The notes under the pieces were generated by a model. That model was given only the letters and a program-made list of their open reading frames with translations. It did not search any database and was not told the DNA's origin. Shown piece after piece: positions 2-21,200 of a stretch of 28,861 bases of DNA (position 1 is the stretch's first letter; every line of letters begins with the position of its first letter). The position numbers and the translations under genes are program-made. The stretch covers positions 1 through 28,861 of the forward strand of contig CALKVT010000188.1 of assembly GCA_938004865.1 (NCBI GenBank), in the 5' to 3' direction. This stretch comes from an uncultured Myxococcales bacterium (lineage in GTDB: Bacteria; Myxococcota_A; Polyangia; Haliangiales; Haliangiaceae).

Positions 2-1375
2 ACGATCCAGAGCCTGGCCTACACGCGCAACGCCAAGGGCCTCATCACCGCGGTGTCCAGCCCGGTCGCGCACGAGGGCTGGAGCTACGGATACGACGAG
101 CTCGATCGACTGATCTCGGCGAGCAACACGTCGAGCTCGGGGGAGAGCCAGACGCTCGCGTACGACGCGATCGGCAACATCACCTACAACTCGCGGCGCG
201 GCACGTACGTCTACGGCTCGTCGCGCCCGCACGCGGTGACGGCGGCGGGCGCGAGCAGCTACACCTACGACGCGGCCGGGCTCATGACGTCGGGCGCGGG
301 GCGGACGCTGGGCTGGGACGGCGACAACCGGCTGGTGACGGTCAGCGGCGGCGGCGTGAACCTGACGTACACGTACGACGCCGACGGCGCGCGCATCCAG
401 GAGGTCGAGAACGGGATCACGCGGCGCTACTTCGGCGACAACTTCGAGCTCCAGGTCGGCGGCGCGACGCGGAAGTACGTGATGGTCGCCGACGTGCTCG
501 TCGCGCGCCGCGACGCGGGCACGGCCTACTGGGTGCACACCGATCACCTGGGCTCGATCCAGGCCGAGACCGACGCCACCGGCGGCGTGGCGCACCGCAA
601 GACCTACCGTCCGTACGGCGAGGTGCTGTCGTCGACGGGCACGCTCCAGGACGAGCCGCGCGGCTACACCGGCCAGCGCCACGACGCCTCCGGCCTCCTC
701 TTCCTGCACAACCGCTCCTACGATCCGGCGCTCGGGCGCTTCGTGTCGCCGGACCTCGTGATCGACGGCGAGGACACGGTCGGCCTCAACCGCTACGCGT
801 ACTGCAGCAACAACCCGGTCACGCGCACCGACGTCGAGGGCACGGACGACGAGCCCGAGCCCGACAAGGACAAGCAGCCGGAGAAGAAGGCCAACGGCAA
901 CTGGGTGTCGCGCGGCGTGGACGCGGCGAAGAAGAACGGCGAGTTCGCCGACGCGCCGCCCACGATCGGCGAGCCCGGCCAGGACAAGGTCCGCTACGAC
1001 TTCTACCAGAAGCCGGTGGCGGTCGCGGGCTCGCACTTCAAGGCGGTGGTCACCGACGAGTCGGGCAAGAACGTCGGCACGTACAGCCTCGCCGGCTGGG
1101 ACGCGAAGTACAACGACCCCAACCCAGGCGACGACAAGTACCGGCACGCCGGCACGATCTACAAGGACAGGGAGAGCCTCAAGAGCTTCAACGACGCGTA
1201 CATGAACATCGCCGACGGCAACCGCTACGCCGTCGGTGACTCGAACGCGGCGATGGACCACGCGATCAAGGCGGTCGGCGAGACCAAGGGCCTCTTCACG
1301 CTGTCGAACCCGCACGGGGTGCCGGCGGCGGCCTACGGCTACAACAACTTCGACTACCAGGAGCCGCAGCCGTGA
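2..1375 (+). CDS. RHS/YD-repeat polymorphic toxin, C-terminal fragment (5' end lies outside the window) with a variable C-terminal toxin domain
   Basis: The frame is open from nt 2. YD repeats are present (YDAIGNITY, YTYDAAGLMTS, TYTYDADGARIQ). The RHS core ending is present (HTDHLGSIQAETDATG...YRPYGE...RSYDPALGRFVSPD...NRYAYCSNNPV). A ~175-aa Lys/Asp-rich tail follows the core, as in polymorphic toxins. The ORF track starts at 53 with GTG, but the frame continues upstream. Confidence 0.85.
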   Translation, partial: TIQSLAYTRNAKGLITAVSSPVAHEGWSYGYDELDRLISASNTSSSGESQTLAYDAIGNITYNSRRGTYVYGSSRPHAVTAAGASSYTYDAAGLMTSGAGRTLGWDGDNRLVTVSGGGVNLTYTYDADGARIQEVENGITRRYFGDNFELQVGGATRKYVMVADVLVARRDAGTAYWVHTDHLGSIQAETDATGGVAHRKTYRPYGEVLSSTGTLQDEPRGYTGQRHDASGLLFLHNRSYDPALGRFVSPDLVIDGEDTVGLNRYAYCSNNPVTRTDVEGTDDEPEPDKDKQPEKKANGNWVSRGVDAAKKNGEFADAPPTIGEPGQDKVRYDFYQKPVAVAGSHFKAVVTDESGKNVGTYSLAGWDAKYNDPNPGDDKYRHAGTIYKDRESLKSFNDAYMNIADGNRYAVGDSNAAMDHAIKAVGETKGLFTLSNPHGVPAAAYGYNNFDYQEPQP

Positions 1376-1740
1376 GCGCGCGCTGGACCCTGGGAGCGCT
1401 GCTCGTCGCGGCCGCGGGCCTCGCGGCGCTCACGCTGCACGGGCTGCGCGCGAGCCCGGACGCGACGTCGTCGGCTCCGGCTGCCGTGTCCGCGCGCGAG
1501 GTGGACGCCGACCAGCCGCCGTCGCTCGCCGACGAGCGACCGCCGTGGGAGGTCGTGCGCGAGCGCGACACGGTGCTCCCCGCGGGCGCGGTGCCGGTCG
1601 CGCACGTGGCGGCGCCGCCGCCGGATCCGTCGACGCCGATGCCGCCGGCGTCCGTCGAGCCGCCCAACCCGGCGACCCACCGCCCGCCGCTGCACAACCC
1701 CGGCGGCGTCGACGGCGACCGCCCACCCCGCTCGCCCTGA
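1372..1740 (+). CDS. Hypothetical Pro-rich protein with an N-terminal hydrophobic anchor; candidate RHS immunity or partner protein
   Basis: Its GTG start overlaps the RHS stop (GTGA), which suggests translational coupling. Nearly every third position in this frame is G/C, so it looks coding. The N-terminal hydrophobic segment is WTLGALLVAAAGLAALTL. The rest is low-complexity and Pro-rich, so the function is uncertain. Confidence 0.4.
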   Translation: MSARWTLGALLVAAAGLAALTLHGLRASPDATSSAPAAVSAREVDADQPPSLADERPPWEVVRERDTVLPAGAVPVAHVAAPPPDPSTPMPPASVEPPNPATHRPPLHNPGGVDGDRPPRSP

Positions 1741-1762: not shown

Positions 1763-2761
1763 TCAGTCGCAGCCGCCGTAGCGGCTAACGGCCATCGTGC
1801 CGTCGGGAGTCTCGTCGTCCTCGGGCAGCGCAGGATCGAGGTAGCCCACCAGGTAGGTGTACATCGTCATCCCGCCGTCCACCGTGGCGACCCCGGTCAC
1901 CTGCTCCATCACGCCGTCGCCGTTGGAGTCGAAGAGCGCCCGTGGCTCCGGCGCCAGGATGATCTGCGACTGCCACTCCAGGCGCGGCGTGGTGCCCGTT
2001 AGCGCGTACTCGGCGCGGAGCATGCGGGGGGCGGGGTGGCAGGATCGCTCGACCGGGTGCGCGAACCACTTCACGATCACCACCCGCGTCACGTCGTCGA
2101 AGCGGAAGCCCCACGCGGCGGCGTCGCCGCTGGCGTCATCCGGGTACTCGCGGGACAGCGCCCGATAGGCGGGCAGGGCGCGAAACGCGGTCGCCACACG
2201 CTTCAGCTCGGCGGCGTTCACGGCGATCCTGGTGCCGGCGCGCACGATGGGGCGGGGCGTGATCACGACGGGCGCGCAGCCGGCCTCCGGGCGAAGCTCG
2301 GCGACGAACGTGGGGTCGTTCTCGATCTCGGCGGCGTTGCTGGTGGCCAGCCAGAACAGGCCGGTGATCGTCGTCGCGCACGCGGTGCCATCGGCGGCGC
2401 GCGTCGCCAGGGGCTGCCCCACGATCGTCCGCCACGCCGCCGGCGCGTGGGCTGCCGCCTGGAGCATGATCCGGTGGCCGAGCTCCGACACCGGCGCCGC
2501 GCCGACCCAGTCGGTGCTCGGCTTCGAACCGTCGGCTGGCCGGTACCAGTCCTCGATCGCGACGAACCATCGCCCGTCGAGCTCGGCGACGACCATCATG
2601 TCACGATCGCCCCATGTTCCCGCGGCCGCGTCGAGGACGGCGGCGTCGCCGGCCGGCGTCGCGACCGCGTCGGACGATGTCGCCGACGCCGCGCGTTCCG
2701 GCTGCTTGCACGACGTCGACTGCGTGGCCGCGACGACGAGGATGAGGCCGAGCTGGCGCAT
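1763..2761 (-). CDS. Hypothetical lipoprotein
   Basis: ATG start. The signal peptide with lipobox is MRQLGLILVVAATQSTSC. The composition is globular and not low-complexity. It is convergent with the RHS locus. Confidence 0.6.
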   Translation of the reverse strand: MRQLGLILVVAATQSTSCKQPERAASATSSDAVATPAGDAAVLDAAAGTWGDRDMMVVAELDGRWFVAIEDWYRPADGSKPSTDWVGAAPVSELGHRIMLQAAAHAPAAWRTIVGQPLATRAADGTACATTITGLFWLATSNAAEIENDPTFVAELRPEAGCAPVVITPRPIVRAGTRIAVNAAELKRVATAFRALPAYRALSREYPDDASGDAAAWGFRFDDVTRVVIVKWFAHPVERSCHPAPRMLRAEYALTGTTPRLEWQSQIILAPEPRALFDSNGDGVMEQVTGVATVDGGMTMYTYLVGYLDPALPEDDETPDGTMAVSRYGGCD

Positions 2762-2768
2762 CAGGGAC

Positions 2769-4253
2769 CTAGCGGCGGCCGACCGGAGGTGGCTCGTAGC
2801 GCTCGACCGGGCTCGCCGTCGGCGTGCCGCCGAGGACGACGATGGTGCCGTCGCACAGGCGCGCGGCGGCGTGACCGGCGCGCGCGCGGCCGATGCGATC
2901 GGTGGTGACCGCGTCGACCGAACCGTCGAGCGGATCGAGGTTGATGATGTAAGCCGAGAGGACGGGCTCGCCCTGCGGCGTCTCTTTGCCTCCGGCGACG
3001 AGGACGCGGCCGTCGGGGAGCACGGTGATGGTCGCGTCGAGGAGGCCGGCGCCGGGCGGTAACGCGCCGGCCTCGACGAAGCCGCCGTCGATGGTGAAGA
3101 GCTCCATGGTGCGCACGGGCTGGCCGGCGGCGTCGATGCCGCCGATGAAGAGCACGCTGCCGTCGGGCATGCGCACCGCCTCGTGGCGGGCGCGGGGGAT
3201 GTTCATCGTCGGCGCGAAGCCCTGCGCGAAGCTCTCGCGCAGCGGGCGCCACAGCTCGGCGGCGGCGATGAGCGCGCCGTCGCGATCGATGCCGCCGGCG
3301 ACCAGCACCGGCGCGCCGAGGTCGTCGGAGAGGCGGGTCGCGGTGGCGGCGCGGCGCGGGATGGCCATCGTCGCGGCGAGGTCGCGGATGGCGACGGTGG
3401 CGCCGTCGCCGGCGATCTCGACCGGCGTCGCGATCGGCTCCCCGCCGACCGGGCCGCCGCCGAAGACGACGATGCGGCCGTCGCTCAGCGTCACGGCGGT
3501 CGCCCCGGCGCGCGCGAGCCGGACGTCGTCGAGGCCCTCGACGCGGCCGACCAGCGAGGTGTCGAGCTCGAAGACCTCGAGCCGCGGCGACGCCTGGAGC
3601 GTCAGCGGATCGGTGCCGCCGAGCACGACCAGGCGGCCGTCGCCGAGCGACGCATAGGTCGCGTCGCGCCGCGACGTGAGGCTCGCGACCGTCTCGAGCA
3701 CGCCGCGGTGCGGGTCGAAGCGCTCGAGGCCGGGCACCGGCTGGTCGGTCTCGTCGTCGCCGCCGGCGAAGAGGACGCTGCCGTCGCGGTACGTGATGGC
3801 GCGGCCGCCGCGGCGCACGGCCGCCGGCGAGGCGTCGACGTCGCCCCACTTGACGGTGCGCGCGAACCACAGGTGCGGCGACGGCGGCGCCGCGTCGCCG
3901 AGCGAGAAGGCGCACGTGCGGCCATACGCGACATCGCCGCCGTTGAGGCGGCCGGTCATGTGCAGGACGAGCCCGTCGCCCTCGGGCACGTCGCGCAGCT
4001 CGATGGTGTCGCCGCGCGCGAACGACGCGCTCAGGAGGTCGGTCGACGAGCCCTCGCGCGCGAGCGTGAGCACGACCTCGTCGAGATCGGGGAACGCCGC
4101 CGCGTCGCTGCCCGGCGCGGGCCCGTCGATCACCGGCGCCATGACGATGTCGTCGGGCCCGCACGCACCGAGCGCGAGCAACGCGAGGACGCGCGGTCCG
4201 TTCGCCCTGAGCGAGCAGCACCGCCGCGAGTCGAAGGGCGCGTTCACTGCCAT
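2769..4253 (-). CDS. Kelch-repeat beta-propeller lipoprotein
   Basis: Kelch blades recur with the signature DG.(I/V).V.GG (DGRLVVLGG, DGRIVVFGGG, VLVAGGIDRDG, DGSVLFIGGID, DGRVLVAGGKE, DGTIVVLGGT). The N-terminus MAVNAPFDSRRCCSLRANGPRVLALLALGAC is a lipoprotein signal. Its ATG sits 8 nt upstream of the preceding gene's stop. The 854-aa ORF in the track is an Arg-rich upstream read-through artifact. Confidence 0.8.
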   Translation of the reverse strand: MAVNAPFDSRRCCSLRANGPRVLALLALGACGPDDIVMAPVIDGPAPGSDAAAFPDLDEVVLTLAREGSSTDLLSASFARGDTIELRDVPEGDGLVLHMTGRLNGGDVAYGRTCAFSLGDAAPPSPHLWFARTVKWGDVDASPAAVRRGGRAITYRDGSVLFAGGDDETDQPVPGLERFDPHRGVLETVASLTSRRDATYASLGDGRLVVLGGTDPLTLQASPRLEVFELDTSLVGRVEGLDDVRLARAGATAVTLSDGRIVVFGGGPVGGEPIATPVEIAGDGATVAIRDLAATMAIPRRAATATRLSDDLGAPVLVAGGIDRDGALIAAAELWRPLRESFAQGFAPTMNIPRARHEAVRMPDGSVLFIGGIDAAGQPVRTMELFTIDGGFVEAGALPPGAGLLDATITVLPDGRVLVAGGKETPQGEPVLSAYIINLDPLDGSVDAVTTDRIGRARAGHAAARLCDGTIVVLGGTPTASPVERYEPPPVGRR

Positions 4254-5293
4254 GGCGGCAACCCCGTCGGCCGGATGACGCGATCGCCGGGCCCGGTGTC
4301 GCGCGCGGCGATCGGGATCAGCACCGCGGCGGCGGCGACCGCCCCGCCGACCGCCCACACCCACCGCTTGCGGTACCAGGGCTCGCGCACGATGTCCGGC
4401 GGCGTCAGCATGCGCTCGACCGTCGCCGCGATCACCTCGCCGTCGGCGGTGACCAGCGCGCGCGCTCGCTCGCGGCCGTCGGCAGCGCGATGGCGGATGC
4501 GCGCGGCGCCGGCGAGGATCGTCACCTCGATGACCGTGGCCGCGCCCAGCGCGCGCGCCTGGATGAGCGCCTCGTCCTCGTCGGGCGGCGCGATCGGCGC
4601 CGGCGTCACCACGACCTCGACGGCGGTGCGGTCGAGCACGACGCGGCGGCCCCACGGCCGGTGCTCGCGGCAGGCGGCGTCGATCCAGTGCGCGCCGTGG
4701 GGCAGCTCGGCGCGGCCGTCCCCCGAGATGGCGCCGTCGATCGAGATCACGCAGCCGGCGGGCGCGCTCACGCGCAGCACGCCGCGCGGCGCCGACGCGA
4801 CCTCGTCGCGCGCGCGCTGGAGCTGCTCGATCGCGCGCGGCGGGAAGCGCGCCGGATCGAGGCGGCGCGACGGATCGATGCGCGCGGCGACGAGCAGGTC
4901 GTCCCATGCGCGCTCGGGCTCGCCGAGCTGGATGCGCGCCAGGCCGCGGTAGAGGAAGAGCTCGGCGAGGCGGGCGACGTCGAGGCCGGCGGCGCCGGTG
5001 CGGTCGAGCTCGGCCGCCGCCTCGTTGAGCAGCGCGAGCGACTCGTCGAAGCGAAGCTGATCGTAGGCCGTGATCGCCGCGACGATGCGCGACGCGTCGG
5101 CGGGTTTCGGAGCCGGCGGCGAGCGATCGACGAACGCCGCGCCCCGGGCCTCGGCCGCGGCGCGCGTGCGCGCGCGCAGCACCGCCGGCGCGTCGGGCGG
5201 CGCCCAGTAGAGGATCGCGTCGGCGGCCGGCGCCGCGGCGGCGTTCCCCGCGGACATCAGCACGACGACGGCGGCCAGGACGATGGCGCGCAA
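4244..5293 (-). CDS. Secreted protein with a TPR-like helical region, a PEGA-like beta-sandwich and a C-terminal TM anchor
   Basis: A probable TTG start gives the signal peptide (M)RAIVLAAVVVLMSAGNAAAAP; the start is uncertain, and an internal ATG (MSAGN) is the alternative. The PEGA-like segment is VLRVSAPAGCVISIDGAISGDGRAELPHGAHWIDAA. The C-terminal TM segment is WVWAVGGAVAAAAVLIPIAA. It overlaps the downstream Kelch gene by 10 nt, so the two form an operon. Confidence 0.6.
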   Translation of the reverse strand: MRAIVLAAVVVLMSAGNAAAAPAADAILYWAPPDAPAVLRARTRAAAEARGAAFVDRSPPAPKPADASRIVAAITAYDQLRFDESLALLNEAAAELDRTGAAGLDVARLAELFLYRGLARIQLGEPERAWDDLLVAARIDPSRRLDPARFPPRAIEQLQRARDEVASAPRGVLRVSAPAGCVISIDGAISGDGRAELPHGAHWIDAACREHRPWGRRVVLDRTAVEVVVTPAPIAPPDEDEALIQARALGAATVIEVTILAGAARIRHRAADGRERARALVTADGEVIAATVERMLTPPDIVREPWYRKRWVWAVGGAVAAAAVLIPIAARDTGPGDRVIRPTGLPPWQ

Positions 5294-5320
5294 CGCCCAT
5301 ATTGTCGGCCGCCCTCCGGA

Positions 5321-5334
5321 GGTGGTCAACCACC
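5321..5334. promoter_or_regulatory. Palindrome GGTGGT-ca-ACCACC in the 60-bp divergent promoter region between the kinase gene and the PEGA/Kelch operon
   Basis: The 6-bp arms are perfect and the spacer is 2 nt. A TATAGT -10-like hexamer lies 5 bp downstream and 13 nt before the kinase ATG. Confidence 0.25.
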
Positions 5335-5353
5335 GCGCTATAGTCGGGCGGCG

Positions 5354-7012
5354 ATGGCCGAAACCGTGCTGGGGCGCTACGAGCTGCTGCGGCTGCTCGG
5401 GCGAGGCGGCATGGCCGACGTCTACCTCGCGCGCCGGCGCGTCGCCGGGCTGGAGAAGCGGCTGGTCATCAAGCGGGTGCGGCCGCAGCAGGTCGGCGAC
5501 ACCACGTTCCTCGAGCTGTTCGTGCGCGAGGCGCGGCTGTCGATGACGCTCAACCACCAGAACATCGTCCCGGTCTTCGATTTCGGGCGGGTGGGCGACG
5601 CGGCCTTCCTGGCCATGGAGTTCGTCGAGGGCCGCGACCTGGGCGCGACCCTGCGCAAGGCCGAGGCGCCGGTGCCGCCGATGCTCGCGGCGTTCATCGC
5701 CGCCGAGTGCTGCCTCGCGCTCGAGCACGCGCACCAGCGGCTCGGGCCCGACGGCCAGCCGCTCGGCGTCGTGCACCGCGACGTCACCCCGCGCAACGTG
5801 CTCCTGTCGTGGGCCGGCGAGGTCAAGCTGACCGACTTCGGCGTCGCCGCGCTCGCCGGCGATCCCAGCGGCGAGGTGCGCGGCACGATCGCGTACATGG
5901 CGCCCGAGCAGGCGCGCTACGAGCCGACCGACGCGCGCGCCGACCTCTACGCGCTCGGCCTCGTGCTCTGGGAGATGCTGGCGGGCGAGCGCGTGCGGAA
6001 GGCCAGGGACAAGAGCGCGCTCCTCGAGCACACGCGGCTCGGCGTCCTGCCCCCGCCGCCCGAGGGACCGCCCGCGTTGCTCGAGGTGATCGCGCGCGCG
6101 ACCCAGTACGAGGTGGGTGAGCGCTACGCCGACGCGGCCGCGATGCACGCGGCCCTCGATCGCTACCTCGTCGAGGCGCGCGCGGCGGCACCGGGGCCGA
6201 CGCCGGCGCGGCAGCTCGCCGACTGGCTCGAGAGGGTGTGGGGCGACGAGGCCGGCAAGATCGAGGGCCAGCCGCTGGAGCCGGGGACGACGGCGCCGGC
6301 CGACGACCTGGATCCGGCGACGATGCGTTCGCTCGCCGAGACCGCCGGCGAGCTGCCGTCGGTGGTCACGCCGAACGCGACCGCGACCGCCGCCGGGGGA
6401 ACGGCCGCGGCGGCGGCAGCAGCCTCGGCCGCCGCCGCGGCGCCCATCGTGCCCGTCGCTCCGGCTCCTCCCGCCGCGTCACCGCCGCCGTCCGCGCGCC
6501 GCTGGCTGCCGGCGGCCGCGCTCGTCGCGGCGGCCGCGCTCGTCGCCGTCTACGTCGTCGCCACGCGTGCGCCGTCGAGTACGCGCGTGGCCATCGTCGA
6601 CGACGCGGCGGCGCCGGCCGTCGACGCGGCGGCGCCGGACGCGTCGAGCGCGGACGCCCCGTCCGACGACGGGTTCGCCGACGCCGCCGTCGTGAACCAC
6701 GACGCGACGGCGCCGGTCGACGCCCGCGTCGTCGTGACGCCGCCCGATGGACGCGGCGCGCCGGTCGACGCCGGCGCCGACGCCACGCCGCCGCCGGTCC
6801 TGCGCAAGGTCACGATCGGCGCGACGCCGTGGGCCCACTTCACCGTCGACGACGATCCGACGATCCGCGAGACGCCGGAGACGATCCAGCTCGCGCCCGG
6901 GCGGCACCGCATCCACTTCACCAACGATCAGCTCGGCGTGAGTCGCACGGTCACGATCGAGGTCCCGGCCGATCGCGACCTCAAGCACGTCGAGGCGCTG
7001 GCCGAGCCGTAG
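5354..7012 (+). CDS. Eukaryotic-like Ser/Thr protein kinase (Hanks type) with a single TM helix and an extracytoplasmic PEGA-like domain
   Basis: Glycine loop GRGGMADVY. VAIK-like LVIKRV. Catalytic loop HRDVTPRN. DFG motif. Activation loop TIAYMAPE. A TM helix (LPAAALVAAAALVAVYVVA) follows an Ala/Pro-rich linker. The C-terminal PEGA-like domain is VTIGATPWAHFTVDDD...GRHRIHFT...TVTIEV. Confidence 0.9.
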   Translation: MAETVLGRYELLRLLGRGGMADVYLARRRVAGLEKRLVIKRVRPQQVGDTTFLELFVREARLSMTLNHQNIVPVFDFGRVGDAAFLAMEFVEGRDLGATLRKAEAPVPPMLAAFIAAECCLALEHAHQRLGPDGQPLGVVHRDVTPRNVLLSWAGEVKLTDFGVAALAGDPSGEVRGTIAYMAPEQARYEPTDARADLYALGLVLWEMLAGERVRKARDKSALLEHTRLGVLPPPPEGPPALLEVIARATQYEVGERYADAAAMHAALDRYLVEARAAAPGPTPARQLADWLERVWGDEAGKIEGQPLEPGTTAPADDLDPATMRSLAETAGELPSVVTPNATATAAGGTAAAAAAASAAAAAPIVPVAPAPPAASPPPSARRWLPAAALVAAAALVAVYVVATRAPSSTRVAIVDDAAAPAVDAAAPDASSADAPSDDGFADAAVVNHDATAPVDARVVVTPPDGRGAPVDAGADATPPPVLRKVTIGATPWAHFTVDDDPTIRETPETIQLAPGRHRIHFTNDQLGVSRTVTIEVPADRDLKHVEALAEP

Positions 7013-7805: not shown

Positions 7806-8570
7806 TCACGACAGCGCCGTGCCCTCGCGCTCGTGCTCGGCGACGATCGCCCGCGTGAAGCGCCACGTCCCGCCCGCGCCGCGCACCAGCCGAAGCGCCG
7901 CAAGCTCGATGCGGCGGCCGCCGACCTGGCCGGGGAGGTCGTGATCGAGCCGGACGCACGCGACCATGCCCGGCTTGCCCTCCCACGCCGCCACGTCGCG
8001 CGGCAACGCCGGCAGCGCCTCACGCGCGGCGTCGAGCCCCGGCGTCAGCTCGGCCTCGGGCACGCCCCACTCGCCGACCCCGGTCATGCGCGTCATCCAC
8101 TCGAGCACGCGCATGCACTCCTCGTCGGGCAGCGCCGAGAGGATCGCCGGCCCGAGATCGACCGACGGCACGCTCGACGTGTCGGAGAGCGGCGCCAGCG
8201 TGTCGATACCGGCGGCGCGGCGGAACCGGCGCTGCAGCGCGCCCTGCCAGTCCGGATCGTCGAGCATCGGTACGTCGAAGGCGCGCACGCGCTCGAGGTG
8301 CACGGTCGTCTCCGGTCCGCGCACCGGCGGGATCACGAACGGCACGTCGTCGAGCACCGCGAACGCAGCCCAGCGATAGAGGTAGCGCATGGGCCACGCG
8401 CCGACCGCGACCAGGGTGATCGGCGGACGCGCCGGCACCAGGCGCACCAGCTGCGCGGCGACGTCGTACGCCTTGCCGAGCGCGGTGCCGTCGTCGAACA
8501 CCCGCGCCCACAGCTCCTCCCAGCCGCGATCCTTCACCGTGCCGCGCGCACGGCGTCGTTGCAGCACCAT
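7806..8570 (-). CDS. Hypothetical protein (no recognisable domain)
   Basis: ATG start at 8570, and a GTG 18 nt further upstream is also possible. It lies 38 nt after the CxxCH lipoprotein gene and 15 nt before TauE on the same strand. The composition is globular. The long Arg-rich N-terminal extension in the ORF track is an artifact. Confidence 0.5.
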   Translation of the reverse strand: MVLQRRRARGTVKDRGWEELWARVFDDGTALGKAYDVAAQLVRLVPARPPITLVAVGAWPMRYLYRWAAFAVLDDVPFVIPPVRGPETTVHLERVRAFDVPMLDDPDWQGALQRRFRRAAGIDTLAPLSDTSSVPSVDLGPAILSALPDEECMRVLEWMTRMTGVGEWGVPEAELTPGLDAAREALPALPRDVAAWEGKPGMVACVRLDHDLPGQVGGRRIELAALRLVRGAGGTWRFTRAIVAEHEREGTALS

Positions 8571-8608
8571 CTCGGCGAGCGAGGACACCCCGCCGCGATG
8601 GTAGCCGA

Positions 8609-9157
8609 TCAGGGCAGGTGGATGCGGCCGTTGGTCGCCGCCTGGTGGCAGCTGTTGCAGTCGCCGGTCATCGGCGTCGCCATCATCAGGCGCGTGTCGG
8701 GGCACCGGCTCGCCTTCACGCGCAGCGGCATGGCGAGCGCCTGCCCGGTGTAGAAGTTGCCGTTCGACGCCGTCACCAGCCGGACCGTCACGTCGTTGGC
8801 GTCGGTGACCGTGACGGTCGCGCCGGCGATCGGCGTGCCGCCCTGCGAGCTCGCGTAGAGGGTGCCGGCCACGGTCCAGCGCGGCGCCACGCCGCTGCCG
8901 TTGTGGCAGCCCAGACAGACGAGGCCGGCGTTGTGGTTGCCGCTGGGCAGCATCGACGACACCTCGTCGCACGATCCGTCGCCGCCGCCGCCCCCGCCGT
9001 TCCCGGCGGCGTCCGTCCCGCCGCCGCCGCCGGCCGCGTCGACGCCACCACCGCCGCCCGGATCGTCCGATCCCTCCACGGCGCAGGCGGCCACGAGCGG
9101 GCAGACGAAGGCGACGGCGAAGATCGATGTCAGGCGCATGGGCGAGGTGTTTCGCAA
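8609..9157 (-). CDS. Lipoprotein with two CxxCH heme-c binding motifs flanking a CarboxypepD_reg-like beta-sandwich (putative dihaem c-type cytochrome)
   Basis: The lipoprotein signal is MRLTSIFAVAFVCPLVAAC. A Gly-rich linker follows (GGGGGVDAAGGGGGTDAAGNGGGGGG). The heme motifs are CLGCH and CNSCH. Between them sits GTPIAGATVTVTDANDVTVRLVTASNGNFY, which resembles a carboxypeptidase regulatory-like domain. Confidence 0.6.
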   Translation of the reverse strand: MRNTSPMRLTSIFAVAFVCPLVAACAVEGSDDPGGGGGVDAAGGGGGTDAAGNGGGGGGDGSCDEVSSMLPSGNHNAGLVCLGCHNGSGVAPRWTVAGTLYASSQGGTPIAGATVTVTDANDVTVRLVTASNGNFYTGQALAMPLRVKASRCPDTRLMMATPMTGDCNSCHQAATNGRIHLP

Positions 9158-9288
9158 GCGTCGTGCCCCCTGGGAGTCCCAGGCGATTCCGGGTGATCCA
9201 CCCGCTCCCGCGCGCGGCTGTCGGTCGCCACCGACAGTCCCGTGGGGCAGGGGTCACCACGCCCCGGCCGGGAGCTAAGCTGCGACGC

Positions 9289-9957
9289 ATGGGGATGGCC
9301 CGCGATAGCTACCTGGTTGCCCGCGCCGTCGTGCGCGTGCTCGGCGACTCGACGATGACGCACGAGATCCACCGGGTCGAGGAGATCACGGGGCGCCCGG
9401 CGTACCGACGCCTGCTCGCCGAGCTGCGCGACGATCCCGACGGCCAGCGCCTCCTGCGCGAGCAGCCGGAGCTGTCGAGCGAGCTCGTCGACTACGACGC
9501 GCTCCGGCGGATGCCGGAGACGACGCTCGGCGGCGCCTACGTACGCCACCTCGACGGCAACGCCATCACCGCCGACTACCAGGCGGCGCGCACGCGCCAC
9601 GTCGACGATCCGGACATGGCGTACCTCATGCGCCGCTTCCGCCAGACCCACGACGTGTGGCACGCGCTCCTCGGGCTCGGCATCACCGGGCACGAGGAGG
9701 TCGTCATCCACGCCTTCTCGTGGGGACAGATGCGGCTGCCGGTCTCGGCGATGGTCGTCGCGTTCGGCTCGATGAAGCACATCGTCCTCGAGAAGCGCTG
9801 GGGCACGCTGCGCCACTCGCTACGCGAGGCGTACGAGGCCGGACGCGACGCCGCGCCGCTCATCAAGGTGGTGTGGGAGGACCTCTGGGCCGAGCCCATC
9901 GACCGTGTGCGCGCGCGCTACCACGTGCGCACGCTCGAACGCCGCTGGCTCGACTGA
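9289..9957 (+). CDS. Coq4 family protein (ubiquinone biosynthesis COQ4 homologue)
   Basis: The Coq4 zinc-ligand motif HDxxH-x11-E is present as HDVWHALLGLGITGHEE. The size is about 220 aa. ATG at 9289, and ATG at 9295 is an alternative start. Confidence 0.7.
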   Translation: MGMARDSYLVARAVVRVLGDSTMTHEIHRVEEITGRPAYRRLLAELRDDPDGQRLLREQPELSSELVDYDALRRMPETTLGGAYVRHLDGNAITADYQAARTRHVDDPDMAYLMRRFRQTHDVWHALLGLGITGHEEVVIHAFSWGQMRLPVSAMVVAFGSMKHIVLEKRWGTLRHSLREAYEAGRDAAPLIKVVWEDLWAEPIDRVRARYHVRTLERRWLD

Positions 9958-13415: not shown

Positions 13416-16400
13416 ATGGCCAAGAAGAACGCCAAGAGCGCGAAGAGCGACTTCGAGACCGCCGCCGCCAACATCACGAGCGCACCGCATTCCACCGCGG
13501 CCTGGGACGAGATCGAGGAGCTCGCGCGCGAGCACGACAAGCCCGACGAGGTCATCACCCTCTACAACGAGATCCTGAAGAAGGGGCTCGACCCGCAGGT
13601 CGTCGAGATGATCGGCGACCGCGCCGGCGCCTTCTGTGACGAGTGGTTCGGCGACGAGCCCAAGGTCGCCGAGGGCATCCTGGGCAAGGTCCTCGAGCTG
13701 GCGCCGCAGTCGGAGTCGGCGCTGGGCCGGCTGTCGGTGCTCTACACCCAGAACGAGCGCTGGGCCGACCTCCTGCGGCTCTACGACCGCGCGCTCACCG
13801 CGGTGAAGGATCAGGGGCGGCGCATCAAGCTGCTCCGCGAGGCGGCGCAGATCGCCAAGGACGTCGCCAACCAGCCCGAGAAGGCGATCGGGTACCTGCA
13901 GCGCCTGCTCCCGCTCACCGCCGACGACGTGCAGCTCGGGCAGTCGCTGGAGCGCCTGCTCGAGCGCTACGAGCGCTGGGCCGATCTGATCGAGCTGTGG
14001 GAGGGCCGGCTCGATCGCCAGAGCAAGCTCGAGCGCGAGAAGAGCCGGGCGCGCATCTCGGCCTGCTACCTGGACAACCTGCAGGACTCGGCCAAGGCGC
14101 TGGCGGCGGTGCGCCCGCTCCTCGCCGTCGCCGACGATGACAGGGAAGCGACCGCGCTGCTCGAGCGCATCATCGAGGCCCAGCACACCCAGGAGAAGGA
14201 CCGCGAGGCCGCGCTCGACGTCCTGCGCGCGCACTACGACGCCACCAGCCGTCCGCGCGAGGTGATCCGCGTGCTCGAGCGCGTGATCGAGCTGTTCCCG
14301 GACTCGCGCAAGGCGCTGCGCGAGGAGGCCGGCGCGCGACTCGCCGAGCTCGACGACGACCGCGCCGCCATGGACCACTACGCCGAGCTCCTCGCGCTGT
14401 CGCCGGAGTCGTCGGTGACGCAGGAGAAGCTGCGCCAGCTCGCGCAGCGCTCGAACAACTTCGCGCGCTACGCCCAGGGCGTCGCCGCCGCGGCCGAGCA
14501 CGCGATCATGCCCGGGCGCAAGGTCGAGCTCCTCTCGGAGGCCGCGCGCACCAAGCTCGATCTGCTCGACGACGCCAACGGCGCGATCGAGCTCTACCAG
14601 CGCGCGCTCGAGCTGCCCGGTGCGGGCGCGAAGGAGCAGCTCCCGGTGTGCCGGCGGCTCTCCGAGCTGTACCTGCGCGTCGACCGGCCGCGCGAGCGGT
14701 TCGCCATCCTCGAGCGCCTGGCCGGGCTCGAGCCCGCCGACGCCACCCGCCGCGCCGTCATCGGCGAGGCCGCGCGCCTGGCGGAGACCCTGGGCGAGAC
14801 CGACAAGGCGCTCTCGCTGTGGCGGCAGCGCATCGAGCGCGATCCCGACGATCTCGCCGCGATCGACTCGTCGATCCTCCTGCTCGAGACGTCGCAGCGC
14901 TGGCCGGAGCTGGTCGCCGCGCTCGACATGCGCTCGCAGAAGAACGTGTCGACGGCGCAGAGGCGCACCGACCTCACGCGGATCGCGGTCGTGTACCGCG
15001 ACCACATCAAGGACGCCGAGAAGGCGATCGCCGCGTGGCAGCGGGTGCAGCAGGCGTTCGGCGACGACGCCGAGACGGTCGGCGCGCTGACCGAGCTGCT
15101 CTCCGAGGTCTCGCGCTGGAGCGAGCTCGCCGAGCTGCTCGAGCGGGCGAGCGGCAAGGACGTGGCGCGCACGACGCGGCGGCTCAACAAGCTCGGCGAG
15201 GCGCTGGGCACGCACCTCGGCGAGCCGGGGCGCGCGCTGACCGCGTATCGCGCGGCGCTCGCGATCGATCCGGTGAACGACGAGGCCCGCGCCGGCCTGC
15301 TCACGCTGCTCGATTCGCCGGCGCACCGCCGCGCCGCCGCCGACGCGCTCGCGGTGAGCTACCGCGAGAACCAGGACTGGGCCGGCTTCCTCAAGCTCCT
15401 CCCGTCGCGCCTCGCCGACGCGCCCGACGACCGCACCCGGCTCGCGCTGCTGCGCGAGGCCGCGTACATCCAGCTCAACAACACCGGCGATCCGGCCGGC
15501 GCGCTCGACAGCCTGGCGCGCGCGTTCCCGCTCGCGCCGCGCGACGGCGTGATGGAGGGACAGATCCTCGATCTCGCGCAGCAGACCGGCAAGCTGCCGG
15601 TGGCCGATCAGGCGCTCGCCGCGGCCATCGACGCGCTCGCCGAGGATCCGGCCGAGCAGTCGCGGCTGCGCCTGGTGCGCGCCGAGCTGCTCGAGAAGAA
15701 GATCGGCGACGAGGCCGGCGCCCTGGCCGAGTACCTGATCGTCTTCCGCCGCGATCACGCGAACACCACCGCCGCGACCGGCGTCGTGTGGCTGGCCCCC
15801 AGGAAGGGGCAGTGGGCCGACGCGGCGCAGGCGGTGCTCGGCTTCGCTGCCGCCAAGGAGCGGCTCGACGACGGGCTCTTCGGTCACTACGCCAAGGCCG
15901 GCGAGGAGGCGCTCGAGGCGGCGGTGACCGCGCTCGAGGAGGCCGCGCCCAAGGCCGGGCTCCCGCCCGCGGTCGCGGCGCAGGTGTGGTCGCTCATCGG
16001 CGTGTGGCAGCGCGATCGCCGCGGCGACAAGGCCGCCGCGGTCACCGCCTTCAACAAGTCGCTCACCGCCGGCGGTGATCGCGCGGACACCTTGCGCGCC
16101 GTCGCCGAGCTCTTGCGGCCCGGGGGGCCGAGCGCGTCGCTCCTCGACGTCCTGCGCCGGCTATCCGATGCCGATCCGCGTGATCTCGACGTGCTCGTCG
16201 AGGCCGCGGACACCGCGAGCCGTCAGGGGGATCGCGACGCCTCGGTCACGATCCTCGGCCAGGTGCTCGGCCGCGCCACCGGCGCGTGGCGCGGGTCGTC
16301 GTCGGTCCAGTCGTCGCGCCCACCGGAGGCGGTCGTGCGCTGGGCGATCGACGGGCTCGTCGATCTCCACCGCTCCGCCGGCCGGCCCCGCGTCGCCGTC

Positions 16401-19400
16401 GACCTGCTCGTCGAGTCGGCGCGCCTGCCGTTCGACCCGGAGACGCGGCGCGATCTGCGCATGCGCGCCGCCGCGATGGCGTCGAGCGAGCTGCACGACA
16501 ACGCCGCCGCGATCGACATGTACCGCGGCGTGCTCGCCGACAGCCCCGGCGATCTCGACATCATCGCGCGCCTCGGCGCGCTGCTCGAGACCGAGAAGCG
16601 CTACGCCGAGCTCCTCGGCCTGCGCCACACCCAGCTCGGCCTCGAGTCCGACCCGGCGCGCCGGCTCGAGCTCCGCCTCGACATCGCCCGCCTGGTCGGG
16701 GTCGTCGAGGAGACCGGCGGCCGCTACGAGTCGCTGATCGCCAACCTCGCCGATCAGCCCGGCCACGACGCGTCGATCGACGCGGCCCACGCCTTCCTCG
16801 GCGGACGCGGTCAGCACAAGGCGCTCGCCGACCTGCTCGAGGAGCAGGCCGCCAAGGTCGAGGGCGCCGGCGAGGCCGCGCGCGCGGCCAAGCTGTGGGC
16901 GCGGTTCGCCGCGGTCACCGAGAAGGAAACGCGCGAGACCGATCGCGCGATCATGGGCCACAAGCGCGTGGTCAAGCTCGCGCCGACCCAGGACTCGCTG
17001 CGGGCGCTCGCGCGCCTCCAGCTCGAGCGCAAGCAGCCGGCGCAGGCGGTGCCCTGGTTCGAGAGCCTGCTCTCGACGGTGCAGGGCGCCGAGCGGCTGG
17101 CCGTGCTCGACCAGCTCGCGCGCGCGCACATCGCGGCCGAGCAGGAGGACCGCGCGATCGCGACGATCGAGGCCGCGCTCGACGACCGCGAGCCCGCGCT
17201 CGACCTGCGCCTCCTCCTCGCCGACCTCTACCGCAAGGGCGAGCAGTGGGAGCCGCTGGCGCGGCACCTGACGCGCTCGCTGGCGCTGTTCGGCGACGAG
17301 CGCGGGCGCGAGCTCGCGCGCGAGGCCGCGTCGATCTACACCGACAAGCTCGACGCCCCGGCCAAGGCCATCCCCGCGCTGGAGAAGGCGCTCGCGCTCG
17401 ATCCGACCGACAAGGAGATGCGCGCGAACCTGGCGATCGGCCTGCGCGTCGCCGGCCGCCTGTCCGAGGCGCGCGCCATCCTCACCGAGCTCATCGAGGC
17501 CTTCGGTCGTCGCCGCGCGCCCGAGCGCGCGCAGCTCCACGTCGAGCTGGCCAAGGTCGCCCACGCCGAGGGCAAGAACGACGAGGCGCTCTCCGAGATG
17601 GAGGCGGCGTCCAAGATGGACGTCCACAACACGCGCATCCAGCGCGAGCTCGCCGAGCTGTGCCGCGCCGCCGGTCAGGTCGACAAGGCGGAGCGCACGT
17701 ACCGCGCGCTGCTCCTCGTCGTGCGCCGGCAGCCGCCGGGTGATGACGAGACCGCGGTCGGCCAGAGCGAGGTGCTCTTCGAGCTCTCGCGCCTCGCCGC
17801 CGGTCACGGCGAGACCAGCCAGGCCAAGGAGCTCCTGGAGAGCGCGATCGACGCCGCGGTGCAATCCGACGGCGAGGTCCGCCGCCTGCGCCGCAGCCTG
17901 ATCGCACACGGCGAGCCGGAGACCTTGCTCCGCGTGCTCGAGCTGCGGCTCGGCGCGACCAGCGAGGCGGCGAGCCAGGCGCGGCTCTACGGCGACATGG
18001 CCGACGTGCTCGACGGCTCGCTCGGGCGAACGAGCGACGCGCTCGACGCCGCGATCAAGGCGTTCAACCTGGCGCCGTCGCGTCTGGACCTGCTCGAGAA
18101 GGCGCGGCAGCTCGCCCGGAAGTCGGGCGGCACCAAGAAGTTCGTCGAGGCGGTCGAGGCGGTCGTCGAGCGGCTGCGCCGCAAGGACGATCCGCCGCTG
18201 GTCGCGTCGGTCCTCCTCAAGGCCGGCGAGGCGCTCGAGAACGACGCCGACGATCTGGCCGGTGCGGCGGCGATGTACCGCCGCGTCGAGATGCTCGGCG
18301 AGCGGCTGGCCGAGGCGTACTACGCGCAGGCCCGCGTCGCGGGCGCGCTCGGCGATGACGAGCAGCAGGCGCGGGCGCTCGACAACATGCTCCAGCTCGC
18401 CGGCGGCGCCGATGGCGATGCCTCTCCGGCGCAGGTCGACGCGCTCTACCGTCTCTCCGAGATCTTCATCGCCAACCCGGCGCGCCGCGCGCAGGGCATC
18501 GAGCTGATCGAGCGCGCCTTCGCGGCCGAGCCGCGCTGGGCTCAGGCCGGACGCGTCCTCCGCGGCGCGTCGAGCGCCGATCCGGGCGATGCGCGGGTGA
18601 TGGCGCTCTACGAGCGCGTCGCGCGCAACGGCGGCGACAACGAGCTCCTGCTCGACTTCCTCGAGAAGCGGGCGCAGCAGCCGGGCGCGACGTCGGCGCA
18701 GGTCCGCGAGGCCGTCGACCTCGCGGTCGAGACCGGTCAGGAGCAGCGCGCCGAGAGCCTGCTCCAGCGCGCGGTGCAGGCCGCGCGCGACTCCGCCGAC
18801 GGCGTCGGCGGGGCGGTGTGGGCGGTCCTCTCGCTCACCGACCGCCGGGTCGCGGCGGGCGATCTCGCGTCGGCGCGCGAGCTGGTCTACGAGATCATCG
18901 GTGTCGCCGAGCCCGCGGACATGGATCCGCTGATCGGGCGCGTGGCCGCGCGCGCCGCGGCGGACAAGGCGACGCAGCCGCTCGCCGCCGAGATGTACGA
19001 GCTCCTGCGCGAGCGCGCGCCCTCGGAGCGGACGGTGTGGGAGCCGCTGGTCGCGCTCTACCGCGACATGGGCGACGGCGACCGGCTGGCGAGCGTCATC
19101 TCGTCGACGCTGCCGACCTTGACCGATCCGCAGGAGCGCAACTCGCTCCGTCGCGCCCACGCCACGTACCTCATCGAGACGCTCGACCGTCCGCACGACG
19201 CCGCCGACGTCCTGCGCGACGCGCTGCAGGACGACCCCGACGATCTCGCGGCCGCCGGCGCGCTCGAGCGGACGCTGCGCGCGCTCGGCGACGACGACGG
19301 GCTCGCCGAGTTCCTGTGGGCGCGCTTCGACGACGCCGTCCGCCGCGGCAACCGCGAGAGCACGCTCGACGTCGCCGCGCGCCTCGGTCCGCTGGTCGAG

Positions 19401-21200
19401 TCGACCGGTGGTAACGCGGCGCGGGTGTATCGGGCCGCGCTCGAGATCGCTCCCGACGACCGCGAGCTGCTGCGCCGTGTCGTCAGCGGGATCACGCCCG
19501 AGGACGATCCGCGCGAGTCGGCGGCGCTCATGGAGCGCCTGCTCGCCGTCGAGACGCCCGAGGCGGCGCCGGCCCTGTGCTGGAGCCTGGCGTCGGCGTA
19601 CGAGCAGGCGGAGGACTGGGCCGGCGTGCAGCGCACGCTCGCCGCCGCGCACAAGGCGGCGCCCGGGGACCAGGCGATCCACGACCGGCTCGAGCAGTTC
19701 TACCGCGACAGCCAGCAGTGGAAGGAGCTGGCCGAGCTCATGACCAGCGACGCGGAGCGCGCGACCGACGCCGCCGTCGCGGTCGACCGGCTGCGCGAGG
19801 CGTCGGCGGTCTACACCGGCTTCCTCGGGCAGCCGCTGCTCGCCGCCGAGGCCCTGCGCGCGGCGCGGGCGCGTCAGCCCGAAGCGCCGGCCCTGTCGGC
19901 GGAGCTGGCGGCGGCCCTGGCCGCGGCCGGCGATCACCGCGGCGCCGTGACGTCGCTCGGCGAGGCCCTCGATCCGTGGTCCGGCGACAACGGCGAGAGC
20001 CAGCCGGCGCCGGTGCAGGGCGCCGCGCGGGTCGATCTCCTGCTCCTGCGCGCGAGCCTGCGCCAGCAGCTCGGCGAGGAGGACACGGCGGTCATCGATC
20101 TCGACGACGCGTACAAGCTCGACGGGCCGCGCGCGGCGGCCGCCCTCTCCGAGGGGCTCGAGCGCATGCGCGCGCGGGCCGAGGCCGCAGGGGACATGGC
20201 GAGCGAGCGCACCGCGACCTTGCGGCTCGCCCAGCTCCTCGGCGAGCACGGCGACCTCGAGCGGGCGCGCGATCTGCTCGTCATGTGGATCGAGCGGATG
20301 CCGAGCGATCCCGACCCGCTCTACATCCTGCGCGACATGGACGCCGGCATCGAGCACTGGGACGGCGTGATCGCGGCGTGCACGCGGCTCGCGTACATCG
20401 TCGAGGGCGAGGCGCAGGTGCAGGCGGCGCTCGACGTCGCCGACGCGTCGGCGCGCGCCGGCAAGCCCGGCGACGCGATCGGCGTGCTCGAGATGGTGCA
20501 CCAGGTGCAGCCGGGCGCGGAGACGATCCGCGTCAAGCTGCGCGAGCAATACGAGGCCGCGGGGGCGCACGGTCAGCTCGCCGCGATCCTCATGACCGAC
20601 GCCGAGCACGCGGCCGACGCCGACGCCAAGTTCGCCGCGTACAAGCGCGCCGCCGAGCTGTACCTGGCGGCGGGCGACGCGGCGGCGGCGTCGGTGCCGG
20701 CGGGCAAGGCGGCGGAGCTCGCGCCCGACGATCACCAGACCGCGATGCTGCACGTCGACATCCTCATCGGCTCCGGCCGCACGGAGGAGGCGGCCAGTGC
20801 GCTCGAGACGGCGATCGCGGCGCAGAAGAAGCGCACGCCCGAGCTCGCGACCATGCAGCAGCGCATGGGCCGGGTCGCCGGCATGCTCGGGGATCGCGAC
20901 GGTCAGCTCGGATGGCTGAAGAAGGCGTTCGACGTCGATCGCAAGAACGGCGAGATCGCCGCCGAGCTGGCGCAGCTCGCGACCGAGACCGGCGACTACG
21001 AGCTCGCGCTCAAGCCGCTGCGCGCGATCACGCTGATGGACAACCCGCTGCCGATCACGCGGCCGATGGCGCTCCTCTGGGAGGCCAAGATCGAGCACGC
21101 GCGCGGCAACCGCGCCAAGGCGGAGCTCTGGGCCAAGAAGGCGCTGCGCGAGGACCCTCAGTTCCACGAGGCGCAGCAGTTCCTGGACGAGCTGGCCTGA
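13416..21200 (+). CDS. Giant (2594 aa) all-alpha TPR-repeat protein with no signal peptide; probable cytoplasmic scaffold
   Basis: It is a single uninterrupted 7.8 kb ORF with strong GC3 bias and an SD (gaggga) 5 nt upstream of the ATG. TPR signature positions W4-L7-G8-Y11 recur throughout ([90 protein letters not shown]). Many A-x-x-Y/AL-x-L-D-P motifs are present. I see no catalytic motif. Confidence 0.85.

Follow-up and report, generated by a model that had tools for sequence, protein, structure and literature searches.

A three-gene locus with a Hanks-type kinase, a bitopic envelope protein and a Kelch lipoprotein is co-inherited in Haliangiales and may form the input half of a trans-envelope phosphorylation pathway

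What do a Ser/Thr kinase and two envelope proteins do together when their genes face each other across a very short promoter region? The question is raised by a locus on contig CALKVT010000188.1 of an uncultured Myxococcales bacterium (assembly GCA_938004865.1), of which the whole stretch of 28,861 nucleotides is referred to as the window. Here, a Hanks-type kinase gene on the plus strand is located divergently from a minus-strand operon of two genes, the first encoding a 349-aa product for which we use the working name MidP and the second a Kelch lipoprotein. An earlier note on this DNA had interpreted the triad as an envelope sensing or signalling unit. By gene order, the triad is co-inherited across one order of soil and sludge myxobacteria, the Haliangiales. 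We regard it, at about even odds (probability roughly 0.5), as the input side of a Ser/Thr phosphorylation pathway that spans the envelope and is conserved in this order, with an FHA-domain sigma54 activator (enhancer-binding protein, EBP) and a lipoprotein termed X as the output. The window has a base composition of 74% GC and matches metagenome contigs from bioreactor sludge, through which an extended contig is available beyond the window ends; metagenome-assembled genomes (MAGs) of Kofleriaceae are its closest named relatives.

The kinase gene runs from its ATG at 5354 to the stop codon at 7012 on the plus strand and encodes 552 aa, arranged in the order kinase domain, juxtamembrane region, one transmembrane (TM) helix, disordered ecto-linker and C-terminal PEGA-like domain. 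On the minus strand the MidP gene (4244–5293) starts with a TTG at 5293 and ends with a TGA at 4246–4244, followed by the Kelch lipoprotein gene (2769–4253, minus strand, 494 aa), which starts with the ATG at 4253 or the GTG at 4247. The TTG of MidP and the ATG of the kinase are separated by exactly 60 bp (5294–5353). Independent gene calls on the source contigs gave the same three products and the same 60-bp gap, so that strands and spacing confirm the earlier description of a kinase facing an operon. Read directly from the sequence, the start of the Kelch gene overlaps with the stop codon of MidP (4244–4253, minus strand). Nearly all related loci show an overlap of -1 to -10 nt at this position, with -4, -7 and -10 recurring. 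Judged by this start/stop overlap the two genes are translationally coupled, as the earlier note had already proposed.

Related loci were collected with an alignment of MidP, which led to 39 loci in GTDB species-representative genomes with MidP identities of 35–86%. All of them belong to Kofleriaceae, Haliangiales, Polyangia or unclassified delta-type MAGs. According to tblastn the Kelch gene directly follows MidP in every locus whose contig continues that far, and the kinase gene is located divergently upstream of MidP in 36 of the 37 testable loci, down to a MidP identity of 35%. The other neighbours change: TauE, Coq4 and RHS are retained only in the closest relatives. The analysis of neighbourhood conservation suggested for this triad thus came out in its favor. 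At the one exceptional locus (L002, 4415–7204) genes for a thioredoxin-like lipoprotein and a predicted outer-membrane barrel protein are found where the kinase is expected, and an FHA-EBP gene still follows Kelch; we put this kinase loss down to one rearrangement event or to a fault in assembling the MAG.

Comparison of the loci brought out a new element: downstream of Kelch, about 19 of 32 informative relatives carry the gene for an FHA-sigma54 activator. This gene is convergent with Kelch and encodes FHA, Sigma54_activat and HTH_8 domains, with the phospho-Thr-binding residues of the FHA domain (GR, SRxH, SRNGT) and the GAFTGA motif conserved. An FHA domain in a sigma54 activator implies input from a Ser/Thr kinase. 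The EBP gene is located 11–121 nt past Kelch in 13 loci and on one JGI contig (14 directly adjacent cases) and 1.7–5.4 kb downstream of Kelch in 5 further loci. Direct adjacency is found in the most distant relatives (L035–L041) as well as in close ones (L002–L005). Divergent from the EBP gene lies the gene for lipoprotein X (215–230 aa), which gave no Pfam match. Between the two, a -24/-12 element of the form TGGTAC-N5-TTGCA points into X in 12 of 13 loci, agreeing with the consensus at 9 or more of 11 positions (L003 12322, L004 9727, L005 6912, L009 13878, L014 7453, L015 12274, L035 12274, L036 12428, L038 12267, L039 11875, L040 5927 and L041 10348). Since the direct adjacency occurs in the deepest and in close branches alike, the five-gene arrangement of triad, EBP and X is probably ancestral. 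Together with the co-conservation of the triad, the activator gene near it in many relatives supports the main interpretation of the earlier note, a conserved envelope signalling unit.

The window itself shows a different gene order past Kelch, where a lipoprotein-like open reading frame (ORF), a 122-aa ORF, a 1876-aa toxin gene and a second kinase are located. The toxin cassette thereby occupies the position that the EBP/X pair holds in relatives. With the cassette behind Kelch, only the input triad is present at this locus, and the output pair would be encoded at another site of the genome or be lost.

Next we consider the parts of the proposed input, beginning with the kinase. It matches the Pfam model Pkinase (PF00069) with 125.9 bits (cut-off 31.7, E 2.5e-36). 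An alignment and an AlphaFold2 (AF2) model were built from 61 orthologues. In all 61 the residues K40, E59, D143, N148, F162/G163, A183-P184-E185 (APE) and GT178 are invariant, and the DFG aspartate D161 is kept in at least 90%. The catalytic loop HRDVTPRN (aa 141–148, 5774–5797, plus strand) is also identical in 61 of 61 orthologues and does not conform to the Ser/Thr-type loop HRDxKxxN: the usual Lys of Ser/Thr kinases is replaced by Thr, and at D+4 there is an Arg, as known from the eukaryotic Tyr-kinase loop HRDLAARN. The P+1 loop, GTPAYMAPE, conforms to the Ser/Thr type. Given the HRDVTPRN loop, the kinase may have dual or Tyr specificity.

On the cytoplasmic side, the juxtamembrane region contains the motif G-T-G-T323-x-R-S326-x-x-A-T330-A-A-[DE] (aa 320–334, 6311–6355, plus strand), which AF2 model and alignment single out as the sole conserved motif of an otherwise disordered stretch. 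T323, S326 and T330 are invariant among the 61 orthologues, and 53 of them carry an acidic residue at T330+3. The motif is a candidate phospho-Thr docking site. The TM helix follows at aa 385–404 (6506–6565) and is flanked by two disordered regions in the AF2 model. Next comes a periplasmic linker rich in Ala, Pro, Val and Asp (aa 405–483, 6566–6802) with a predicted local distance difference test (pLDDT) score <50; its length is about 80 aa in the window kinase and 70–130 aa (median 83) in the orthologues. The protein ends with an extracytoplasmic PEGA-like beta-sandwich of six strands (aa 484–548, 6803–6997, pLDDT 96–98), inside which the segment TPWAHF...GRHRIHF falls.

The earlier note had placed PEGA domains on both sides of the promoter region, in the kinase and in MidP. 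Direct Pfam scans miss both: at E<=1 no PEGA (PF08308) match was obtained for the window kinase or MidP, and NCBIfam and Pfam scans of the window proteins yielded nothing usable for PEGA or TPR. Among homologues, Pfam PEGA was detected in 1 of 61 kinase orthologues (E 0.24) and weakly in 7 of 44 MidP homologues (best E 0.0024). Profile searches support the assignment. We searched an iterated profile of the kinase C-terminus (A3) against 1.84 billion representative proteins at E<=1e-3 and retrieved 4606 proteins, many with tandem repeats; 9 of 10 multi-repeat proteins tested from this set are bona fide Pfam PEGA proteins (E 1e-10 to 1e-123). A hidden Markov model (HMM) of the MidP sandwich matched 49 of 143 proteins of the kinase-profile set at E<=1e-3 with up to 152 bits, including 53 bits on the Pfam-confirmed PEGA protein P0293, and a control-domain HMM gave 0 matches in the same set. 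In addition, the distant full-length MidP relatives P0355, P0363 and P0368 carry precomputed PF08308 matches. Because these searches tie each domain to bona fide PEGA repeats, the two beta-sandwiches are, at the profile level, divergent members of the PEGA superfamily. Both share with PF08308 proteins the pattern P-x-[GW]-A...D[GD]...G-x-H; they differ from them in scoring below the Pfam threshold, and the kinase domain forms a sub-family of its own (PWAxFTVD...PGxHxIxF). When aligned to each other with hhalign, the kinase and MidP domains reached P 5.6e-4 at a probability of 30% (controls 0.25–0.5). The earlier note had also taken the shared PEGA modules as a sign of a co-evolved unit. The unit is supported by synteny, but the similarity between the two domains is not particularly high. 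When the profiles of MidP and the kinase C-terminus were searched against PDB sequences, they returned noise apart from chain D of 9k1u (89 aa, annotated "Serine/threonine protein kinase"), which weakly matches the kinase PEGA profile (E 0.92) and may be a solved PEGA-like kinase ectodomain.

The AF2 model of MidP (pLDDT 90.6) shows all the parts that the earlier note had assigned to the first gene of the operon, a secreted PEGA/TPR protein with a C-terminal TM anchor. From the N-terminus they are a signal peptide, a small alpha/beta unit, a TPR domain (model residues 78–178, 4793–5095, minus strand), a PEGA-like beta-sandwich of seven strands with two nearly invariant Cys (181–239, 4610–4786), an alpha/beta domain (250–307), a TM helix (321–342, 4301–4366) preceded by a conserved WY.SRW.W, and a cytoplasmic tail of 19 aa. 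MidP is thus predicted to be a bitopic envelope protein. The helical-repeat fold superposes on solved TPR domains. At the profile level TPR stays below threshold in MidP itself (TPR_2, E 0.2, 12.3 bits vs a cut-off of 27), and weak TPR matches were found in 10 of 44 homologues. Some 90 homologues make up the family; none is characterised, and every one stems from a metagenome of the Kofleriaceae/Haliangiales type. No full-length relative was found in the PDB by structure or sequence.

The Kelch lipoprotein consists of a lipobox, an N-terminal domain of about 100 aa and seven Kelch-like repeats (aa 152–494). It matches Kelch_6 with 60.4 bits (cut-off 25.3, E 1.3e-16), Kelch_4 with 47.9 bits (21.6, E 1.3e-12) and Kelch_1 with 27.6 bits (20.1), and its PDB relatives are the Kelch domains of KLHL20 and KEAP1, with E down to 8e-17. 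Seven hhhhGG motifs recur at a spacing of about 50 aa, the last repeat being partial (32 aa). Going by these repeats, the predicted propeller would have seven blades, the number given in the earlier note. The lipobox LGAC with Cys31 (...RVLALLALGAC31GPDD) was read by motif after the signal peptide. LAAC, LAGC or LVGC was found in the orthologues of 23 of 38 loci scanned, and in the remainder the scan stopped short of the lipobox. As no +2 residue resembles a known retention signal, the lipoprotein probably sits on the outer membrane.

Both transcription units have recognizable promoters within the 60 bp. Upstream of the kinase, a -10 box TATAGT (5339–5344, plus strand) is located 9 nt before the ATG, and in the intergenic alignment GCTATA[GCA]T recurs in almost every one of the 37 loci, 6–10 nt ahead of the kinase start codon. 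The MidP-Kelch promoter (5301–5329, minus strand) consists of TTGACC (5329–5324), a 17-nt spacer and GACAAT (5306–5301), with 7 nt to the TTG. In a consensus scan this was the only sigma70-like site in 5150–5500, with 0.0 expected in shuffles. The form GG-TTGACC-N17-GAAACT/GAAGAT/GACAAT is present in 30 of 37 loci, with a candidate start (ATG, GTG or TTG) about 5–14 nt further on. Both divergent promoters therefore have their -10 box 7–9 nt from the start codon. As the boxes lie this close to the starts and no Shine-Dalgarno sequence is present, we infer that the kinase and MidP-Kelch mRNAs are leaderless or nearly so.

How could these parts work together? The PEGA domain of the kinase, the MidP ectodomain (TPR and PEGA) and the Kelch lipoprotein are all predicted to be periplasmic. 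MidP, anchored in the inner membrane, and the Kelch lipoprotein would form a periplasmic accessory complex. This complex would bind the small PEGA ectodomain of the kinase on its flexible tether of 70–130 aa and set the kinase activity when something changes in the envelope, for example when a ligand arrives, damage occurs or the membranes shift in distance. Once active, the kinase would autophosphorylate the invariant juxtamembrane T-x-R-S-x-x-x-T-x-x-D/E; the FHA domain of the EBP would dock on the phospho-Thr, and the EBP would itself be activated and then switch on sigma54-dependent transcription of lipoprotein X. The synteny of the triad, the abutting divergent promoters, the overlap of Kelch and MidP, the topology, the kinase residues, the EBP link and the Thr motif are all consistent with such a pathway. 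The full version, an undescribed five-gene trans-envelope circuit ancestral to Haliangiales in which Kelch and MidP gate the PEGA kinase and pT-x-x-D/E recruits the FHA-sigma54 EBP, inducing an envelope lipoprotein, we put forward as a tentative and somewhat doubtful proposal.

Several points weigh against the pathway. Every mechanistic step, be it interaction, phosphorylation or ligand, is inferred. The loop HRDVTPRN is atypical, with the Ser/Thr-kinase Lys missing and the Arg of the Tyr type in place; FHA domains require phospho-Thr. Similarity between the PEGA domains of the kinase and MidP is weak, so that "shared PEGA" is weak evidence on its own, and by its sequence the Kelch lipoprotein could sit on either membrane. 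No PP2C phosphatase is part of the conserved gene set. Neither EBP nor X was found in the window or in the extended contig, over a distance of 10 kb past Kelch and of 22 kb in the opposite direction. An EBP gene nearby is also missing from 12 other informative loci, and at the level of gene order the link is thus not obligatory.

This last point bears directly on the possibility that the triad is a sensor-kinase unit with other cytoplasmic targets and that EBP-X is a frequent but functionally separate neighbour. Counting the window, 13 informative loci have no EBP near the triad, and both kinases and EBPs are numerous in the genomes of myxobacteria. Furthermore, a paralogous second FHA-sigma54 EBP (IGRDPGCDV...) is located 2.4–3.4 kb beyond the kinase gene, on its 3' side, in L010 (1801–3504) and L012 (774–2519). 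However, the directly adjacent EBP genes of the 14 cases span the whole depth of the family and point to an ancestral arrangement, and the invariant Thr motif of the kinase suits FHA docking, which together make a separate output rather unlikely.

To a similar degree we doubt that MidP and Kelch are effectors instead of sensors, that is, an envelope-acting unit, for instance in glycan or protein binding or processing or in peptidoglycan or outer-membrane assembly. The kinase would then control the activity or assembly of this unit, either through contacts between the TM helices and ectodomains or by adding phosphate to the short MidP tail in the cytoplasm. Synteny and coupling speak for this arrangement as much as for a sensory one. 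The 19-aa MidP tail is conserved and ends with RP.G.PPW, but contains no conserved Ser or Thr. Structural neighbours of MidP include the TPR lipoprotein/anchor proteins LpoP, YbgF and PilF, in agreement with an effector role. Kelch proteins can be enzymes, and the window protein gave weak matches to GlxA and Glyoxal_oxid_N; its matches to oxidases and epimerases, however, are far below the cut-offs. Moreover, the MidP-Kelch promoter is of the sigma70 type and paired with that of the kinase as would be expected for one receptor, while the sigma54-regulated gene is X.

The promoter region holds one more element to which the earlier note had drawn attention. The palindrome GGTGGTcaACCACC occurs as a single exact match at 5321–5334 and contains the -35 box of MidP. 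In the form GGTGGTCAACCACC it is a perfect 6+2+6 inverted repeat. Among the relatives only its core GGTCAACC is conserved (30 of 37 loci); the arms past GGT/ACC are not, and in L001, the closest relative, no trace of the element is present. At 74% GC, the window contains perfect inverted repeats with 6-bp arms at a rate of about 6 per kb, resulting in a probability of about 0.28 for at least one in 60 bp; taken alone, the palindrome could thus be due to chance. Since the core keeps a fixed N17 spacing to the -10 box and the start codon, it acts as a -35 element. Judged by conservation and spacing, the palindrome is the conserved -35 box of MidP plus a window-specific extension: the element noted earlier is present, and we rejected it as a conserved operator. 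That it binds a dimeric regulator co-controlling both divergent promoters is very unlikely, even with a perfect repeat placed between two promoters and a core kept in most loci, given the fixed spacing of a -35 box, the variable arms, the missing element in L001, a distance to the kinase -10 box ranging from about 4 to 70 nt and the chance expectation. A scan of the window for sigma54 promoters gave 16 matches vs 20 expected.

Is such a system without precedent? Signalling by Hanks kinases under the control of accessory proteins is already known, and the triad is an uncharacterised design of that type. In the H1-type VI secretion system (T6SS) of Pseudomonas aeruginosa (TagQRST-PpkA-PppA-Fha1), the outer-membrane lipoprotein TagQ, which holds the periplasmic partner TagR, acts with TagR on PpkA, whose activity depends on TagQ, and further on Fha1, and the pathway senses envelope perturbation (PMC7817224). 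This pathway may be considered the nearest functional precedent, the resemblance being functional only: both combine a bitopic Hanks kinase with a periplasmic domain, a lipoprotein with a periplasmic partner, and an FHA readout, which for the triad is a proposed one. No TagQ, TagR, PppA, Fha1 or T6SS genes and no ABC-like TagS/T unit were detected among the Pfam-scanned neighbours in the window or the extended contig, and a sequence relation of MidP and Kelch to TagR and TagQ was neither found nor expected. The ectodomain of the triad kinase is a PEGA domain, whereas that of PpkA is of the von Willebrand A type, and the FHA protein is a transcription activator here and a scaffold of the secretion machine there.

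PknD of Mycobacterium tuberculosis has an extracellular beta-propeller sensor. From the same organism, the membrane Hanks kinase PknH reportedly acts on the regulator EmbR via the FHA domain of the latter (cited in PMC6213207). Compared to these kinases, the triad has its propeller on a separate lipoprotein instead of in one polypeptide with the kinase. Its regulator would be a sigma54 EBP and not a member of the SARP family, and the host is diderm, which opens outer-membrane options. Outer-membrane lipoproteins serve as envelope sensors for inner-membrane signalling proteins in RcsF-IgaA-RcsCD and NlpE-CpxA, and YycHI-WalK and LpqB-MtrB contain kinases controlled by accessory proteins; in these systems a lipoprotein and/or a bitopic accessory protein modulates a kinase from the periplasmic side. 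By analogy, an accessory protein encoded with the kinase would act periplasmically in the triad as well. We compared these systems by description only; they are histidine kinases and phosphorelays and share no homology with MidP or Kelch.

Closer to the window, Jelsbak, Givskov and Kaiser (2005, PNAS 102:3010; cited in PMC11980068 and PMC4320627) reportedly described FHA-type NtrC-like EBPs in Myxococcus xanthus in which the FHA domain replaces the receiver domain. The EBP beside the triad in relatives has the same order of FHA, AAA+ (GAFTGA) and HTH; a difference is that it is absent from the window. We are not aware of any description of a cognate kinase that is partnered with MidP or Kelch. 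Hanks kinases number around a hundred in myxobacteria, and sigma54 activators, some of them of the FHA type, occur in dozens; we know of hardly any myxobacterial Hanks kinase tied to sensor partners, a signal or a transcription factor. The locus family may offer a complete wiring diagram from genome context, comprising two accessory envelope proteins, kinase, candidate docking motif, FHA activator and a sigma54 promoter with its target, and makes the question of how kinases and FHA-EBPs are paired directly testable. If the proposed pathway is true, it would represent a Ser/Thr-kinase counterpart of the envelope surveillance by Rcs and TagQRST. It would also give the widespread PEGA domain a first concrete role, as a docking module between receptor and accessory protein. 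We know of no established function for the PEGA domain itself, and a literature search for PEGA domain plus kinase returned no functional study. For the window, what is added is a conserved, uncharacterised sensor triad with its output genes separated by a toxin cassette.

Turning to the neighbouring genes, the ORF closest to the triad is a 332-aa ORF (hyp332, 1763–2761, minus strand), which lies 8 nt past the Kelch stop codon on the same strand and has an N-terminal hydrophobic segment and no Pfam match. We considered it as a fourth member of the operon and rejected this, as no counterpart is present in any of the 39 related loci; it is therefore lineage-specific. Next to it, the 122-aa ORF (1372–1740, plus strand) follows the toxin gene and is possibly an immunity gene. 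The C-terminal end of the toxin lies at 2–1375 on the plus strand; the complete gene of 1876 aa is of the SpvB/TcdB_toxin_midN/RHS/YD-shell type, and the cassette corresponds to 12514–18509 of L042.

On the kinase side, a mechanically listed long ORF at 7806–9290 (minus strand) probably represents two genes of 260 aa and 176 aa according to the source-contig calls, the latter with a weak CarboxypepD_reg match; genes for a thioredoxin and a CBS-domain protein are located further along. A giant ORF of 2594 aa (13416–21200, plus strand) has only faint or weak precomputed matches to TPR families. It is followed by a gene (21398–23206, plus strand) whose 602-aa product matches PA14 and the P-domain of proprotein convertases and, downstream, by a trypsin-like protease (24179–25213).

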